This document shows positions 58,101 to 64,000 of a DNA stretch of 64,000 nucleotides, piece after piece (position 1 is the stretch's first letter; each line of letters begins with the position of its first letter). A program made the position numbers. The DNA comes from Anaerolineae bacterium (GTDB lineage: Bacteria > Chloroflexota > Anaerolineae > S140-20). The DNA lies in NCBI GenBank assembly GCA_027021705.1, contig JALUTT010000085.1, positions 21,526-85,525 on the forward strand, written 5' to 3'.

Positions 58101-61100
58101 GTGGCGGGGGATGGGCCCGGAAACCCCTTCGACCGGGGCTGCTTCCTCGTCAGCCCGACCAACGAGGCGGGCCTCGTCGTCGGCGACTCGGAAGCGCTGA
58201 TCCATCGGACGGCCCACTTCCTGGCCCTCCTGGTCACCTCGCCCCTGGGAGCAGCGGTGGCCGAGTCGGACTGGGACCCGGCCGGCCCCTCGGGATGGGA
58301 GCCCTCCTCCCTGGCCAGCTTCGGGCTGGCCGCCATCCGTTGGCCCGGTCCGGCGCTGGTGGAGGCTCTGAGCGCCCGCTGGGCCGGGGAACTCCTCGCC
58401 CGGCTGACCGCCTCCATCCCCGGCGTCGAGGAGGAGGCCGATGCCGCCGCCCGCCGGTGGGCGGCCGGGGAGCGGCTGGCCCCTTCCTTCCTCTTGGAGC
58501 GCCTCTCCACCCTCGCGCCGGCCCCGCCCAACCCCCTGGCCGACGGCGTGCCCGATCCCCCCTGGCCCTGGGAACTGGTCGGCCTCCGAGAGCGGCTGGA
58601 GGCCGCCGTCCGGCGCTGGGAGGAGGCGTGGCAGGCCACGGACGAGGCCCTGACGACCGCCCTGGCCGAGGCCCGGGCGACCTGGCGGGAGGCCGCCCGG
58701 CGCTGGCTGGACCGGCAGCTCGCCTCCCCTGCCGAAGGAGCCCTCCGGCGCATCGGTGCCCGCCTGGAGGCCGTCGCCCGCCTCCTGAGGGCCTTCGTCG
58801 AGGAGGTGGAGGCCGGGGTGGAGGAAGCCCACCGGGAACTGGAAGCCGTCGAGGAGCAGCTTGCCGCTGCCGCCGAGGCCCTGTCCCGCCACTTGGCCCC
58901 GTTGCCCGGCTCACCGCTGGCGGCGCTGCTGCGCTGGGGACCCCACCCCCTGCGGTGGCCCCGGCGGTGGGGCCAGTGCCGCCGGGCCCAAGACCTCGCC
59001 CGGCACCACGCCCACCTGCTCCGCGCCCGCCTGGTGGCCCTTCGGACCCTCCGGCTCCACGAAAGGGCGCTGCCCTGCTACCGGGCTATGCAAGCGGCGT
59101 GGGCGGAGGTCCTCGAGGCCTGGGCCTGCTGCAGTGCCCAGGTGATCCAGGCCGCCGGCTCGCCCACCCTGGCCGGCTGGCAGGAGCAGCAGCAGGCCGC
59201 CCTGGAGAGCTCCGGCGGGCCGTGGACCCCCGCCCTGGTCGAAGCCCTCTACGAGGCCGCCGAGGACCTGGAGGATGGCCCCCTCTGGGACCCCCCCGGC
59301 CCGCTCCGTCGGTGGATGGAGGAGGGCACGCCGGCCGAGGAGATCGAGGGCCAACTGCGGGACCACGCCGCCGGACGGCTGCGCCCCCGGCTCCTCCTGC
59401 CGGTGGACCTGGCGCTGGCCCGGCAGATGGCCGACGAAGCACACCTGGCCGACTGGCTGGCCGCCTTCGTCGCCCAGGCCAGCCCTTTCCTGCGCTACGA
59501 CGAGACGGCGCTGACCGAGGAGAGCCGGGCCCGGACCCGGCTGGACCGCTGGCTCCTGCTCCCCGGCGGGGAACGTTCGCCCCTGGCCCGCCTCTGCCAG
59601 CGCTGGTCCCAACCGCCCCTCCTGCTGGAGAGCCAGGAGCCGGGGGAGATGATCGCCGTCACCGTGCGGCGGAGAGCAGTCCGTTTTGGAGCGGATAGCC
59701 GTCAGCGGAGTAGGGAACGGATTGAGCAGATAGGAGAGCCCCTCTCTCCGTTCAATCCGCTCTCCTAATCCGTTGACAGCAGTCCTTCTAGAGCGGATAG
59801 CCGTCAGCGGATTCGGGAACGGATTGAGCGGATGGGAGAGCCCCTCTCTCCGTTCAATCCGCTCTCCCAATCCGTTGACAGCAGTCCTTCTAGAGCAGCC
59901 CGTTTCGGAAAGCGGGCTGGCGCTCCCACACCACATATTGTACGAGGAGGTATCCTATGTTCGAGGAAAACCTTGAGGGCTACCGCCCATACCGCTGGAA
60001 CGACTGGAACCCCTGGTGGAACGGCCTCGACTGGGAGGAGGCCCGAGAGGTGGTGGACCGGGAGAGCCGGGCGCGCATCCTGCTGCTGGGCCTGGTCAAC
60101 GCCGGCAAGTCCACCCTCCTCAACCGGCTGCGAGGCTGCACGCTCTCCCTGCCCACCTCGGGGATCGAGGCCCCGGAGGAGGCCCGGGCGGGCGGGGGAT
60201 GCCGGGTTGAGGACTTCGGCCTCTTCTGCCTGGTGGACCTACCCGAGGAGGCGACCGGCGAAGGGGCCGAGGAGGATTTCCTGGCCTACGGCCTCTCCCC
60301 CCTCCAGATGGCCGAGGAGGCCGACCTGCTGGTCTACCTCCTCGACGGGGCCGCCGGCGTGCGGGTGGCCGACTACCGCTGGATCGGCCGCCTGCGCCGG
60401 CTGGGCCGCCCCCTGCTGGTCGCGTTGAACAAGAGCGACCTGGTGGAGGAGGAGACCTTCGCCCAGTTGCCCGAACTGGAAAAACGGCTCGCCACCTCGG
60501 TGCTCCCCATCTCGGCCCTGGACGGCACCAACGTGCTGGACCGGCTCCTGCCGCGTATGGTGGATGCCTCCCCCGGCCTGGCCGTCCCCCTGGGGAGGGA
60601 ACTGCACGGCTTCCGCCGCCAGGCGGCCGCCCGCCTCATCCGACGGGCCGCCCTCTTCAACGGCTTCATCGCCCTGGAGCCGGTGCCCTTCCTCGACATC
60701 CCCTTCCAGATGGCCACCCTCGTCGGGATGGTGATGCGCATCGGTGCCGTCTACGACCGCCCCCCCACCGATGCCCACCGACGGGAGGTGATCGCCGCCG
60801 TCACCGGAGGGCTGCTGGGTCGCTACGCCACCCAGCAGGCGATCAAGCTCATCCCCTTCGTCGGCTGGCTGATCAGCAGCTTCATCGCCGTCTCCTGCAC
60901 CTGGCTGCTGGGCCGAGCCGCCGTCGCCTACTTCGAGGCCGGGGGGGATGTCATCCTGACCGAGGGATGGGACCGGGTTCGGAACCGCCTGCACCGCCAC
61001 CGGCAGCCCCCGGAGGCGACCCGGCGGTGGACGGCGGACGCCTGGGCCGGCCTTCGCCGCCGCTGGCAGAACCTGTTCCGCCCCGCCCGTGGGAGCGACG

Positions 61101-64000
61101 AGCAGACCCCCCTCCCCACCGATGAGGAACGCCCGAGGTGAGCGGCAGGCCCCTTCCGGCGAGGTGATGCGATGAGCCCTTCCCTTCACCTACCCGACGA
61201 CGTCGGAACCGACCTGTTGGCCGCCCCCCGGGGGCCCCTGCGCCGGGTGGATCCCGAGGCCCTCTTCTCCCTCGACGCCCTGCGCCGGGCCTGGCTGAAG
61301 GTGAGGGCGGCCGGCGGTGGCCCCGGCGTGGATGGCGTGACCATCCGCCGCTTCGAGAAGGAGCTGGAGGCCAACCTGGCCGCCCTGCGAGCCGAACTGC
61401 TGGCCGGTCGCTACCGCCCCTACCCCGTCAAGCGCCTGCTGGCCCCCAAACCGGGGGGTGGCCTGCGCCCCATCGCCCTCTGGGCCCTGCGCGACCGGGT
61501 GGTGCAGCGGCTGGTCCACGACTGCATCGCCCCCTACTTTGAACGCCACTTCTTGGATTGCAGCTTCGGCTTCCGCCCCGGTCGCGGGGTGGCCGACGCC
61601 GTGCAGGCGGTCCTCGCCCACCGGGACGCCAACCGGCGCTGGGTGGCCGACGTGGACATCAAGGACTGCTTCGACAGCCTGGACCCGAACCTGCTGATGC
61701 GCTTCGTGCGCCGGCAGGTGAAGGACCCCACCATCCTGCGGCTGATCCGAGCCTGGCTCAACGCCCGGGTCTTCAACGCCCTGCGGGGCCCCTGGACCCG
61801 GGCCGGGGCCTCCCAAGGGGCCGTCATCTCTCCCCTGCTGGCCAACGTCTACCTGCACCAGGTGGACCTGCAACTGACCGGCCAGGGTTACCACCTGGTC
61901 CGCTACGCCGACGACCTGGTGATCTGCTGTCGGCGCAAACGGGAGGCCCAACGGGCGATGGAAGCCACCGCCGTAGCGCTCCGGCGAGTCCGGCTGCAGA
62001 TCAACCCCCACAAATCCCGCCTGGTCCACTTCGACCAGGGCTTCCAGTTCTTGGGGGTCTTCTTCCTGCGCAACGAGCACTTCTACCTGGGATAGGGCCA
62101 GGAGCCCTCCCGCAGGCCCTTCCTATGGCCTGAAGCGCGTCGTGGGCAGCCCCCATAGGCCACTGCTATCGCCGGGCACCGCGGGACCTGCGGGAGGGTG
62201 AAACCAGGAGGTGACACGATGCCCCCGGTCTACGTGCGGGAACAAGGCGCGATCATCCGCCGGCGGGGCGAGCGGTTGATCGTCGTGCGTGATGGAAAAG
62301 CGTTGCTGGACCTTCCCCTCATCCACCTGGACCAACTGGTCCTCTTCGGCAACGTCCAGCTCACCGCCCCGGCCGTCGCCATGCTGCTTCAGGCCGAGGT
62401 GGACGTCGTCTTCTTCTCCCGGTATGGCAAGTTCCGGGGCCGGCTGGTGCACACCGGCTCCAAATTCGCCCGGCTGCGCCACGCCCAGTTGCAGAAGATG
62501 AGCGATGCTCAGACCTCTCTGGACATCGCCCGCCACGTCGTGGCCGGGAAGCTGCACAATCAGCAGGCCCTGCTGCGGACCTGGGCGGTCCAGGCGCCGG
62601 CCTCCGTCCAGGGCCAGGTGCAGCGGGCCGTGGCCGGCATCGGGCGGATGCTGGAACGGGCTCTGACCACCCCCTCCCCCGACTCGCTGCGGGGTTTCGA
62701 GGGAAAGGCGGGGGCCGACTACTGGGCGGCCTTCCGGGCGCTCCTGGCCGAGGACTGGGGCTTTCGGAGCCGCCAGTACTTCCCACCCCCCGATCCCGTC
62801 AACGCCCTCCTCAGCTTCGGCTACGCCCTGCTCCTCAAGGACGTCACCGCCGCCGTGCAACTGGTCGGCCTGGACCCCTACCTGGGCTTCCTGCACACCA
62901 TTGACTACGGACGTCCGTCGTTGGCGCTGGATATGATGGAGGAGTTCCGACCGGTCCTGGTGGACCCCCTGGTGCTGGAGATGGTCAACGGGGGGGAGGT
63001 GACGGCGGCCGCCTTCGAGCGGACGGCCAATCCCCGGCGGCCGATCCGGCTCACCGATGCCACCACCGACGCCCTGATCCAGCGCTACGAAGCGCGGCTG
63101 GAGATGCGGGCCGTCCATCCCGACGCCGGAGGACAGACGGCCTACCGGCGCATCATCGAGCTCCAGGTGCGCCGGCTGGCCCGGCTGATCCTGGGCAAGG
63201 CGAAGCGATACCGGCCCTTCCTGGTTCGGAGCCGGCGATGAGGCGCTTCTGGAGACGTCCCCGTCGGCTGGCCGTCTACTGCGACGGGGCCATCGGTGAC
63301 CGGGGTGAGGGGACCGGCCTGGGGGTCATCGTCCGCGACGAGCGGGGGGAGATCATCGGGCTGGTGAAGCGGACGCTGCCGCCGATGACCAACAACGAGG
63401 CCGAATACGCGGCCCTCGTGCTGGCCTTGGAGGCGGCCTGGCACTTTCGGCCCCGTCGGCTGGAGGTCTACATGGACAGCGAGGTGGTGATCGGGCAGAT
63501 GCAGGGGCGCTTCGCCGTGCACAGCCCGGCGTTGAAGCGGTGGCACGTCCGGGCCTGTCGGTTGGCCCGGCGCTTTCGGGAGGTGACGTACCATTACATC
63601 CCGAGGGAGGCCAACCGGCTGGCCGATGCCCTGGCCGGCGAGGCGCTGAGCGAGGCGCGGAAGGAGGGGAACGATGTTCGTCGTCGTCAGCTATGACATC
63701 CCGGACGATCGCCGGCGGACGCGGGTGATGAAGGTGCTCAAGGACTTCGGGGCGCACGTGCAGTACAGCGTCTTCGAGTGCGAGTTGAGCGCCAAGGACT
63801 ACCGGCGGCTGCGGGAGCGGCTCAGCCCGTTGATTGACCGGGAGGAGGACAGCGTGCGCTTCTACGAGCTGTGTCGGGAGGACGTCCGGCGGCGTCGGGT
63901 GTGGGGGAAGAAGCGGGCGGAGCTGGACCTGCGTCCGTGGTACCTGGTGCGGCGTTCGTAGGTCAACGAGGTCAACGAATGGAGAACGAATAAACGAATG

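Follow-up and report, generated by a model that had tools for sequence, protein, structure and literature searches.

A CRISPR adaptation module of Chloroflexota with a stand-alone reverse transcriptase, its own RNase H and a putative membrane GTPase

Organization of the locus

The window, that is the whole stretch of 64,000 nucleotides analyzed here, comes from an Anaerolineae bacterium and carries at positions 59957-63961, on the plus strand, a DUF697 GTPase, a reverse transcriptase (RT), Cas1, a type 1 RNase H and Cas2. These genes and the features around them are as follows.

30473..43505, +, type III-D-like effector/processing module (Cas10, Csx10, a small ORF, two Csx7, a RAMP, a Csx14-like protein, two Cas6)
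47805..49922, -, WYL and Helicase_C_3 protein of the CRISPR-associated regulator type
53923..55794, +, VWA-domain membrane protein, with hydrophobic segments at residues 46-77 and 464-486
56030..57598, +, 522-aa protein matching no known family, kept near the module in many related loci
57588..59768, +, Tubulin_2/FtsZl1-like protein, 726 aa
59957..61141, +, GTPase with C-terminal DUF697, 394 aa
61172..62095, +, stand-alone group-II-intron-like RT of the CRISPR type, 307 aa
62155..62201, no strand, 47-nt dispersed repeat element within the RT-cas1 spacer
62198..63241, +, Cas1 integrase, 347 aa as longest ORF
63238..63696, +, RVT_3-type (archaeal/LC11) type 1 RNase H, 152 aa
63674..63961, +, Cas2, 95 aa
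63970..64000, +, terminal 31 nt of the contig, identical to the start of contig C98

The gene set, coordinates and overlaps given in the genome-wide survey's note are all borne out by the open reading frames and by Pfam and NCBIfam domains, which exceed the curated cut-offs in all five proteins: MMR_HSR1 and DUF697 for the GTPase (36.6 bits for a cut-off of 27.7), RVT_1 (6.9e-39) and group_II_RT_mat (1.8e-85) for the RT, Cas_Cas1 (1e-88) for Cas1, RVT_3 (9.7e-26) and RNase_H (7.4e-9) for the RNase H and CRISPR_Cas2 (4.1e-26) for Cas2. The longest cas1 frame opens at a GTG (62198), the ATG at 62219 behind an AGGAGG being the likelier start. The RNase H gene overlaps cas1 by 4 nt (ATGA) and cas2 by 23 nt, and in another study two runs yield DNA contigs that span the latter junction. 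As for the 47-nt repeat between RT and cas1, it has 124 blastn matches across 51 contigs of the same genome and shows a depth spike in metagenome contigs.

The same note had called the module type III-linked, and correctly so, the III-D effector genes lying 18 kb upstream of the adaptation genes. The array of this locus most likely continues on contig C98, the only contig whose first 31 nt are identical to the final 31 nt of ours, this shared stretch being located inside a dispersed repeat. C98 displays a leader of about 440 nt followed by 17 repeats of 37 nt with spacers of 36-40 nt.

The RT consists of fingers and palm only, with an intact YADD motif and the invariant D162, and lacks the thumb/X domain, since its end falls near residue 272 of the 428-residue GsI-IIC RT chain. 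Its match to the RT portion of 7kft reaches 1.6e-29, and its thumb-less architecture agrees with the solved Cas6-RT-Cas1 structure as described in the available text of PMC8102632.

The GTPase and the wider neighbourhood

Loci in which the RNase H is linked to the adaptation genes show three gene orders: RT-Cas1-RNH-Cas2, as in the window; RNH-RT-Cas1-Cas2; and RNH-(492-aa ORF)-RT-Cas1-(VWA)-Cas2, where RNH stands for the RNase H. Where the first order is found with enough flanking sequence, the GTPase lies upstream of the RT in 22 of 23 genome loci and in 16 of 16 metagenome loci. None of the five loci of the second order has it, nor do any of the 20 RT-bearing Chloroflexia-type loci. The window protein displays one hydrophobic segment (residues 294-324), a G1 motif GLVNAGKST and a G4 motif NKSD, the canonical DxxG being missing (DLPE), and one subclade of the family has lost its P-loop. 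The GTPase had been proposed as a conserved accessory part of RT-dependent adaptation. This is upheld for the RT-Cas1-RNH-Cas2 order, where a near-constant GTPase forms its own clade, but not for the other two orders, and the degenerate P-loop of one subclade also speaks against it.

The 726-aa protein combines a Tubulin_2 (FtsZl1-type) N-terminal domain with a long helical C-terminal part, and in the closest relatives it likewise precedes the GTPase. VWA proteins accompany RT-Cas1 modules in loci of the Anaerolineae type as well as of the Chloroflexia type, and the WYL and Helicase_C_3 type also adjoins Chloroflexia loci. The five genes of the operon proposed earlier are present as listed, but this putative operon probably sits within a larger conserved neighbourhood that also holds the VWA, 522-aa and FtsZ-like (Tubulin_2) genes.

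One would then wonder whether the GTPase belongs to a separate VWA/FtsZ-like/GTPase membrane system merely adjoining an adaptation operon of really four genes, a view suggested by the nature of the FtsZl1-like protein and of the VWA and 522-aa genes that precede it. A parallel can be drawn with the system predicted by Makarova and Koonin (2010, PMC2875224), whose vWA/FtsZl1 operons, in the available text of that paper, combine a VWA protein, an FtsZ-like protein with a long helical tail, membrane segments and a GTPase, the latter corresponding to ours by description, and for which that text describes no CRISPR link. Unlike in those operons, however, the window GTPase is closer to the RT (30 nt) than to the FtsZ-like gene (188 nt, including a 102-nt tandem repeat), a spacing that cuts both ways. 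In loci such as L004 and L023, the GTPase directly precedes the RT with LuxR, STAND or WYL genes before it and neither FtsZ-like nor VWA genes. Furthermore, of the 29 GTPase homologues that match best elsewhere in the phylum, 28 show neither RT nor cas gene nor match to the 726-aa protein within 1.5 kb, and none of the 15 of these 28 inspected at about 8 kb lies near a VWA, 522-aa or 726-aa protein. Finally, a single branch (support 98) splits 20 RT-adjacent GTPases, the window copy among them, from 33 non-adjacent ones. We thus regard a separate membrane system as unlikely, although it is the alternative that keeps the most weight.

Linkage of the RNase H to the adaptation genes

The four catalytic residues of the RNase H (D16, E54, D80 and D130) are all present and align with the active sites of LC11-RNase H1 (3u3g, with the active-site mutant entry 4h8k) and Rv2228c (3hst). 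In the 31 cas-linked copies compared, E54 and D80 never vary, D16, the first catalytic aspartate that had been left unscored before, is nearly invariant, and D130 is conserved wherever the alignment extends to it.

The earlier locus counts were reproduced exactly. The gene has cas1 and/or cas2 beside it in 28 of the 33 most similar loci, 25 of which are organized as (RT-)Cas1-RNH-Cas2 and three as RNH-RT-Cas1-Cas2, with an RT in 22 and the GTPase directly upstream of the RT in 17 of these 28. The five others come from two Chloroflexota and three Gammaproteobacteria bins, and in one of these (L010) an RT is visible before the contig breaks off. As previously noted, the 47 more distant RNase H loci have no cas gene, and a single RT match was found among them, 5 kb off. 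In a metagenome sample anchored on the RNase H, 34 of 80 loci were linked to the module. No RT-RNH or Cas-RNH fusion was found.

Three samples with anchors other than the RNase H were added. The RT-anchored search gave RNase H linkage in 3/3 close relatives, and the repeat-anchored one in five Chloroflexia loci. An even sample of 401 Chloroflexota genomes, also RT-anchored, yielded 19 cas-linked stand-alone-RT loci, with the RNase H within 3 kb in 13, absent from four and two cut. In these four (G290, G267, G148 and G076), RT-Cas1-Cas2 leaves no room for the enzyme and the genomes have no match to this RNase H query at E <= 1e-8, so that the enzyme is dispensable for at least some such modules. 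As had been claimed, stand-alone-RT adaptation modules have in the RNase H a conserved, clade-specific accessory gene that keeps its catalytic residues, but it is frequent and not universal.

Could the gene be the lineage's ordinary RNase HI, lodged in a cas operon and inherited along with it, with no role in adaptation? It is the sole strong type 1 RNase H of the genome, a second candidate on contig C108 being weak (22 bits), and could thus also serve general needs; RNase HII is encoded as well. All linked loci of known organism belong to one phylum, Chloroflexota (the metagenome contigs carry no taxonomy), and the four modules just mentioned manage without it. On the other hand, the linkage persists in each of the three gene orders and in no fewer than two lineage groups (bins of the Anaerolineae type, and Chloroflexia), which makes simple hitch-hiking unlikely. 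All 49 cas-linked RNases H lie on one branch (support 100) apart from 21 of the 22 other Chloroflexota RNases H, a single clade of cas-linked enzymes not being rejected by the AU test (p = 0.133), and in the 401-genome sample none of the 20 best RT-less RNase H loci has cas, RT or GTPase genes within about 6 kb. In addition, this RNase H type is rare in the window genome's class (1 of 24 in family f2, 2 of 9 in family f4), where the lone strong match (G258) is cas-linked, and the window gene overlaps both of its neighbours. Altogether, we judge mere co-inheritance improbable.

A role in spacer acquisition from RNA

Accessory nucleases of adaptation modules, such as Cas4 and the Cas2-DEDDh fusion, trim DNA prespacer ends. 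The window likewise has an additional nuclease gene, whose place between cas1 and cas2 resembles that of the trimming nucleases, and the RNase H could act on something other than the RT product, by trimming prespacer ends, clearing R-loops where the array or leader is transcribed, or supplying RNA primers to the RT. Locus L198, which retains RNH-Cas1-VWA-Cas2 without RT, would fit such a role. Unlike those nucleases, however, the window enzyme has the sequence of a standard RNase HI with a DEDD site, its closest solved relatives cleave RNA/DNA hybrids, and an RT is present in every linked locus but L198 where the upstream sequence suffices, so that another substrate seems improbable too.

We rather propose that the locus is a type III-D spacer-acquisition module in which a thumb-less stand-alone RT and Cas1-Cas2 work with their own RNase H and a clade-specific membrane-anchored GTPase, a reading that seems to us fairly probable as a whole. 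The RNase H would most likely serve to strip the RNA strand from RNA/cDNA intermediates. RNA protospacers would be copied by the RT into RNA/cDNA hybrids, as is known for RT-Cas1 fusions. The RNA strand would then be degraded or nicked by the RNase H, either before second-strand synthesis or after integration of the hybrid by Cas1-Cas2, and the new spacer would end up in the array as double-stranded DNA. More speculatively, the GTPase could form with the VWA and FtsZ-like neighbours a second accessory layer that may position or regulate the complex at the membrane.

This proposal finds an echo in the RT-Cas1/Cas2 of Marinomonas mediterranea MMB-1 (type III-B) and the Cas6-RT-Cas1 of Thiomicrospira, where, according to the available text of 10.1101/2023.09.01.555893 and PMC8102632, a thumb-less group-II-intron-like RT also works with Cas1-Cas2 in a type III locus and RNA/cDNA duplexes are intermediates. 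Mohr et al. (10.1101/2023.09.01.555893), as far as that text goes, report stable RNA/cDNA duplexes that RT-Cas1/Cas2 both generates and integrates, and they mention digestion by RNase H as one step that may occur. Unlike in these systems, the RT of the window stands as a separate protein of 307 aa, in a module with an RNase H and a GTPase of its own, whereas the available accounts of the studied systems mention RNase H only as a reagent or as a step that the host might perform. A single mention was found in print, one passing sentence of a hot-spring Cas1 survey (PMC9755687), which, in the text available, comes with no RT link, gene order, phylogeny or functional reading.

In its features the module also resembles RT-CRISPR clade 9 from Chloroflexi (Toro et al. 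2017, PMC5541045), in which a stand-alone RT also adjoins cas1, the 37-nt repeats end in ...GGGGATTGAAAC-like motifs and, in the supplement table, VWA and WYL genes belong to the locus. Three Chloroflexia genomes are listed there, with no complete operon available and hypothetical small ORFs upstream of the RT; the related Chloroflexia-type loci fetched here, beyond those three genomes, carry the RNase H in that position. The window RT, which stems from a different lineage, is shorter than in clade 9 and unsplit, and it has a full III-D effector module in its vicinity. Retroviral and LTR-retrotransposon RT-RNase H and host RNase H1-dependent retrons (available text of PMC8989520) also combine an RT with a type 1 RNase H for removal of the template RNA, but here the two are separate genes and the output would be a spacer for CRISPR instead of msDNA or a copy of a retroelement.

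An RT-based CRISPR memory module that encodes both a dedicated RNase H and a membrane GTPase is thus found in many Chloroflexota, and it points to an unstudied step in the way bacteria convert RNA into immune memory.

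Composition of the adaptation module

The five ORFs of the module lie head to tail in the window, all on the + strand.

Genes of the adaptation module (window coordinates)
59957-61141, + strand: GTPase, MMR_HSR1/Era-like with DUF697, 394 aa (Pfam/NCBIfam profiles)
61172-62095, + strand: reverse transcriptase (RT), RVT_1 and group II intron RT model (1.8e-85), 307 aa
62198-63241, + strand: Cas1 (1e-88)
63238-63696, + strand: RNase H (RNH), RVT_3 (9.7e-26) and RNase_H (7.4e-9), 152 aa
63674-63961, + strand: Cas2 (4.1e-26)

The ORF coordinates bear out the overlaps of the RNase H gene given in the genome-wide survey's note, 4 nt with cas1 and 23 nt with cas2. 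The GTPase and RT genes are separated by 30 nt and the RT gene and cas1 by 102 nt, or by 123 nt if Cas1 starts at ATG 62219, which has AGGAGG upstream and agrees with the point where the alignments of relatives begin. Both Cas1 (Cas_Cas1 297.6 bits, TIGR00287 282 bits) and Cas2 (CRISPR_Cas2 91.4 bits, TIGR01573 66.9 bits) score above the profile cut-offs. A scan for promoters and terminators gave 0 promoter-like and 2 terminator-like sites, not above shuffles. Two dispersed elements were observed around these genes. A 102-nt unit, present twice in tandem with 93% identity (59684-59887), covers the end of the upstream 726-aa ORF and the gap 5' of the GTPase gene and belongs to a family that gives 185 blastn hits across 45 of the genome's contigs. 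A 47-nt element (62155-62201) in the RT-cas1 spacer has 124 hits in 51 contigs, and its summed contig depth, in metagenome contigs from four runs, is about 100-fold above that of the flanking sequence.

With 90.5 bits for RVT_3 (cut-off 21.6) and 36.3 bits for RNase_H (cut-off 25.8), the RNase H is a type 1 enzyme (RNase HI, RVT_3/archaeal-LC11 type). Its nearest solved counterparts are LC11-RNase H1 (3u3g, 7.3e-19), the RNase H domain of Rv2228c (3hst) and Halobacterium RNase HI (4e19). The DEDD site (D16, E54, D80, D130) is in register with the solved enzymes, D80 corresponding to the residue replaced by Asn in the mutant entry 4h8k. When 31 cas-linked RNases H were aligned, E54 and D80 were invariant and the Asp of the ...LADALA motif was kept wherever it was covered; the first catalytic Asp, which had been left unscored before, is present as D16 and is nearly invariant in these copies. 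In eight cas-linked RNases H (L015, L019, L020, L022, L024, L029, L032 and L047, all loci of relatives), an insertion of about 12-25 residues follows the first strand, right behind this Asp. No RNase H fusion was found in a search for longer forms, which is weak evidence, nor in the metagenome scan, and PADLOC holds no model that matches the RNase H, the GTPase or the VWA, 522-aa and 726-aa proteins encoded upstream.

This RNase H is the sole strong type 1 RNase H of its genome, which also encodes an RNase HII on contig C132. A second, weak RNase H-like ORF was observed on contig C108 (39572-39940), with 22 bits for RVT_3 and 24.9 bits, below the cut-off, for RNase_H. In an even sample of 401 Chloroflexota genomes, an RNase H of the module's type is seldom found in the window's class, and the strong exception is again cas-linked. 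For hosts of this kind, a module carrying its own RNase H makes sense.

The RT matches RVT_1 (6.9e-39) and has a YADD motif whose A246 and D247 are invariant in 22 relatives. PADLOC groups it with the Cas-type RTs (1.3e-86), and its TIGR04416 score of 287 bits lies just under the 300-bit cut-off because the maturase part is absent. The alignment with the GsI-IIC RT reaches no further than about residue 272 of that 428-residue chain, and only 11 more residues of the protein follow, so that the RT consists of fingers and palm only and has no thumb/X (maturase) domain. A thumb-less RT domain has also been described in the solved Cas6-RT-Cas1 complex, according to the portion of that report available to us (PMC8102632). 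The RTs of Chloroflexia loci have an insertion that splits the tblastn match and is absent from the window's RT. A pattern search derived from the RT alignment returned 79 generic group-II-intron-like RT loci, since the derived patterns are universal RT motifs. From their motifs, the RNase H and the RT both look active.

The GTPase has a G1 P-loop (GLVNAGKST for GxxxxGK[ST]) and a G4 motif (NKSD for NKxD), and scores 36.6 bits for PF05128 (DUF697; cut-off 27.7), with one hydrophobic segment at 294-324. At the position of the G3 motif DxxG the aligned stretch reads DLPE, and the Gly is missing there in most relatives, which suggests that GTP hydrolysis may be atypical. The P-loop lysine/serine motif has been lost in an RT-adjacent subclade (L019, L022, L032 and L047) in which the DUF697 part is still conserved. 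The lost P-loop and the missing DxxG together imply that the role of the GTPase may be partly structural.

Linkage of the RNase H and the GTPase to RT-cas loci

The association of the RNase H with cas genes was assessed in four samples of differing ascertainment (RNase H-, RT- and repeat-anchored sets and the even set of 401 genomes) and in a metagenome scan. The RNase H-anchored sample takes one genome per species and comprises 80 loci, and here the counts of the genome-wide survey's note were reproduced exactly. In the 33 nearest loci (L001-L032 and L047), cas1 and/or cas2 adjoin the RNase H gene in 28, as (RT-)Cas1-RNH-Cas2 in 25 and as RNH-RT-Cas1-Cas2 in 3; in one further locus, L010, an RT is visible ahead of the contig end. 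None of the remaining 47 loci has cas genes, as had been claimed, and one has an RT match 5 kb off.

Anchoring on the RT protein returned 8 loci. Three, all from Chloroflexota, read GTPase-RT-Cas1-RNH-Cas2, and in the two with the most similar RTs (84% and 73% identity) the genes for the 522-aa and 726-aa proteins are present as well, ordered as in the window; the other 5, actinobacterial, have the RT without cas matches. The sample anchored on the repeat motif comprises 36 loci, 12 of which gave any match. In the Roseiflexus-type loci L173 and L203, the order is RNH, a 492-aa ORF, RT, Cas1, VWA, Cas2 and array; a Chloroflexus bin (L196) has RNH-RT-Cas1-Cas2, L198 has RNH-Cas1-VWA-Cas2 with the RT absent, and L182 and L190 have RT-Cas1-Cas2 with no RNase H within the flank covered. 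The VWA protein of L198, a Chloroflexaceae locus (2189-4678, - strand), was seen to contain a Peptidase_M23 domain as well. In BLASTP, the 492-aa protein between RNH and RT (L173:7576-9054, - strand; L203:8143-9621, - strand) resembles neither the GTPase nor the 522-aa protein of the window, and it lacks Pfam and PADLOC matches.

The RNase H, a GTPase profile and an RT profile each served as a separate query against the 401 genomes, and the regions were then fetched. The RT loci chosen were all matches confined to the first ~180 profile positions (split RT type) and all those in short ORFs. Cas1 lies within 1.5 kb of none of the 25 unpicked loci among the 30 best RT matches; this check did not extend to some 70 weaker matches, which lie in long ORFs. 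The RNase H and RT tallies include two genomes flagged unpublished, G145 and G344, neither of which contributed a locus. Counting the window, this sample yields 19 cas-linked loci with a stand-alone RT, spread over 18 genomes. An RNase H is found within 3 kb in 13 of these, two are cut too short (G090 and G355) and four have none. The view of the RNase H as a conserved accessory part thus stands as regards linkage (13/19) but not as regards universality (4/19 without). These four natural RNH-less RT-Cas1-Cas2 modules are L237 (genome G290), L298 (G267), L299 (G148) and L300 (G076); they leave no room for an RNase H gene, and their genomes have no match to the module's RNase H query at E <= 1e-8. 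The module of G290 retains the VWA gene, the 522-aa gene and the GTPase gene upstream. As a control, the 20 best RNase H matches away from an RT in the same sample have no Cas1, Cas2, RT or GTPase within ~6 kb. The metagenome scan with the RNase H alignment found 34 cas- or RT-linked copies in 80 loci, in the same three gene orders only (RT-Cas1-RNH-Cas2, RNH-RT-Cas1-Cas2 and the Chloroflexia type, RNH-(492-aa ORF)-RT-Cas1-(VWA)-Cas2), and no RT-Cas1 fusion.

In a tree of 120 RNases H, the 49 cas-linked copies (29 from RT-Cas1-RNH-Cas2 loci, 5 from RNH-RT-Cas1-Cas2 loci and 15 of the Chloroflexia type) all fall on one branch with 100% SH-aLRT, set apart from 21 of the 22 other Chloroflexota RNases H. 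This branch also takes in L012 and six long-branched Bacillota sequences, whose grouping with the cas-linked copies may be due to long-branch attraction. The branch by which these Bacillota RNases H (L064, L070, L071, L073, L075 and L080) join is very long (2.6 changes per column), and their genes are without cas neighbours. In an AU test on a reduced set of 85 rows (LG+G4), a single clade of the 49 was not rejected (p = 0.133), so that one origin of the cas-linked RNases H is allowed without being proven.

The GTPase had also been proposed as a conserved accessory part, and this holds for the RT-Cas1-RNH-Cas2 loci but not for the other two gene orders. It lies upstream of the RT in 22 of 23 genome loci and in all 16 metagenome loci of that order with enough flank, the exception being L011, where a 329-aa ORF of no family takes its place; it is absent from 5/5 RNH-RT-Cas1-Cas2 loci and from 20/20 RT-bearing Chloroflexia-type loci. 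The GTPase family occurs in 56 of the 401 genomes, mostly as a single copy. No RT, cas or 726-aa match was found within 1.5 kb of 28 of the best 29 non-self matches, and 15 of these 28 loci, viewed at ~8 kb, have no VWA, 522-aa or 726-aa protein. In the GTPase tree, a single branch (98*) splits 20 RT-adjacent copies from 33 non-adjacent ones, the former being much longer-branched. This split is not simply one of taxonomy, since both kinds occur in the window's class, non-adjacent in family f4 and adjacent in families f1 and f9 (our labels).

Effector genes, upstream neighbours and the CRISPR array

The description of the module as type III-linked is borne out by the genes for Cas10, Csx10, two Csx7, a further RAMP, a Csx14-like protein and two Cas6 at 30473-43505. 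The combination of Cas10, Csx10 and Csx7-type RAMPs assigns this effector module to type III-D, with 88.3 bits for TIGR02577 (cut-off 79.4), 229 for TIGR02674 (177.3) and 186.9 for TIGR02581 (108). The immediate neighbour of cas10 was observed to be a divergently oriented gene for a 1200-aa extracellular nuclease of the ExeM/NucH family (26643-30245, - strand). Between the effector and adaptation genes lie those listed here, together with a histidine kinase and a response regulator.

Genes between the effector and adaptation modules (window coordinates)
44104-47577, + strand: beta-helix/Ig-like (Big_1) protein, 1157 aa
47805-49922, - strand: WYL and Helicase_C_3 protein, 705 aa
53923-55794, + strand: membrane VWA protein
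56030-57598, + strand: 522-aa protein
57588-59768, + strand: 726-aa protein, putatively FtsZ-like

WYL proteins of similar type were noticed beside the Chloroflexia loci L173 and L198 and also in L023. Elsewhere in the genome, at least three additional Cas1 loci were noticed, along with two other Cas10 genes, one Cmr2-like (C59) and one for Csm1 (C83). Arrays built on at least four different types of repeat are present too, that of C54 having ~162 repeats; the contigs concerned are C155, C104, C117, C59, C83, C32, C54 and C172.

The 726-aa protein is probably FtsZ/tubulin-like. Its score for Pfam Tubulin_2 is 19.5 bits, below the 27-bit cut-off, and that of its L081 homologue is weak as well (18.2 bits); one distant homologue matches PF13809, and in the ESM Atlas Tubulin_2 clusters make up 24 of 30 feature matches, with a structure TM-score of 0.65-0.66. 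The VWA protein (VWA_2 42.7 bits) shares its gene cluster with the GTPase. Together with the putative FtsZ-like protein, these two resemble the vWA/FtsZl1 operons of Makarova and Koonin, which the part of their article consulted predicts to act at the membrane (PMC2875224); as to the GTPase, the likeness covers its presence. The 522-aa protein belongs to no known family, and a single Atlas match (0.76) is a lead only. The whole accessory set stands upstream of the module in the window, L081, L082 and G290. In L018, L342 and L343 the VWA and 522-aa genes lie downstream of cas2; Chloroflexia loci have the VWA gene between cas1 and cas2, a position that also appears in a supplement table of PMC5541045; L004 and L023 have the GTPase as lone accessory of the set.

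The contig of the window, C85, ends 39 nt after cas2, and the array had therefore been left unseen. The final 31 nt of C85 recur without mismatch as the first 31 nt of contig C98, and no other contig starts in this way. C98 contains ~440 nt of leader-like sequence, after which a 37-nt repeat occurs 17 times, separated by spacers of 36-40 nt, and the repeat has the orientation of the arrays 3' of cas2 in related loci. The overlap is part of a short repeat dispersed in the genome (22 blastn hits on 16 contigs), and C86 carries a copy with one mismatch; the join of C85 to C98 is likely but unproven. By way of this overlap, an array would belong to the type III locus in which the RT gene adjoins cas1 and cas2. 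The same 37-nt repeat is also found in arrays on C121, C142 and C86, and none of the 40 spacers in the four arrays is matched over its full length elsewhere in the genome.

Possible role of the RNase H in RT-dependent adaptation

These data confirm the gene arrangement first noticed; the interpretation put on it is partly supported, and is here widened. In our opinion, the RNase H is very probably a genuine, clade-specific accessory gene of adaptation modules that use a stand-alone RT. It is not obligatory, since four RNH-less modules exist. So far, this variant of RT-linked CRISPR adaptation has been met in Chloroflexota only, wherever the organism is known, and its function can be proposed from sequence. 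The most economical proposal, towards which we lean, is that the enzyme would strip the RNA strand from RNA/cDNA intermediates. This reading follows from the enzyme class, from the co-occurrence with the RT and from the duplexes reported by Mohr et al. (10.1101/2023.09.01.555893): in the sections of that preprint accessible to us, the RNA/cDNA duplexes made by an RT-Cas1/Cas2 are stable and become integrated by it, and digestion by RNase H is named as a possible route.

The accessible text of Silas 2017 (PMC5513706), Toro 2018 (PMC6013744), Toro 2017 (PMC5541045) and the 2025 classification (PMC12669027) makes no mention of an RNase H as a gene of the module, and 'RNase H' has 0 term matches in the supplement of Toro 2017 (PMC5541045). 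One sentence of a hot-spring Cas1 survey, seen in extract, puts RNase H-like and DUF697 ORFs among Cas1 neighbours (PMC9755687); this was the only article text retrieved in which 'DUF697' and 'CRISPR' occur together. Subscription journals and bioRxiv supplements lay outside these searches.

A far more speculative and rather improbable hypothesis would be that RT-dependent acquisition in Chloroflexota is the work of a membrane-associated machine that exceeds the known RT-Cas1-Cas2 core, in which the RNase H would turn RNA/cDNA intermediates into DNA spacers and the module-specific DUF697 GTPase and the VWA and FtsZ-like proteins would place or activate the complex at the membrane, for example where foreign nucleic acid enters. 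If true, this would be the first tie of a cytoskeleton-like or membrane-remodelling system to CRISPR adaptation.

In RT-linked adaptation, the step that turns a spacer taken from RNA into double-stranded DNA of the array is still open: in the sole system studied biochemically, RNA/cDNA duplexes are integrated and removal of the RNA is left to unnamed host factors. An RNase H encoded by the module would make this step testable with defined genes, including natural variants with and without the enzyme. For RNA-recording tools, it is a candidate part that may raise efficiency. Finally, the GTPase, with its module-specific clade, and the VWA and FtsZ-like genes that recur beside the module hint at accessory functions of adaptation as yet undescribed.
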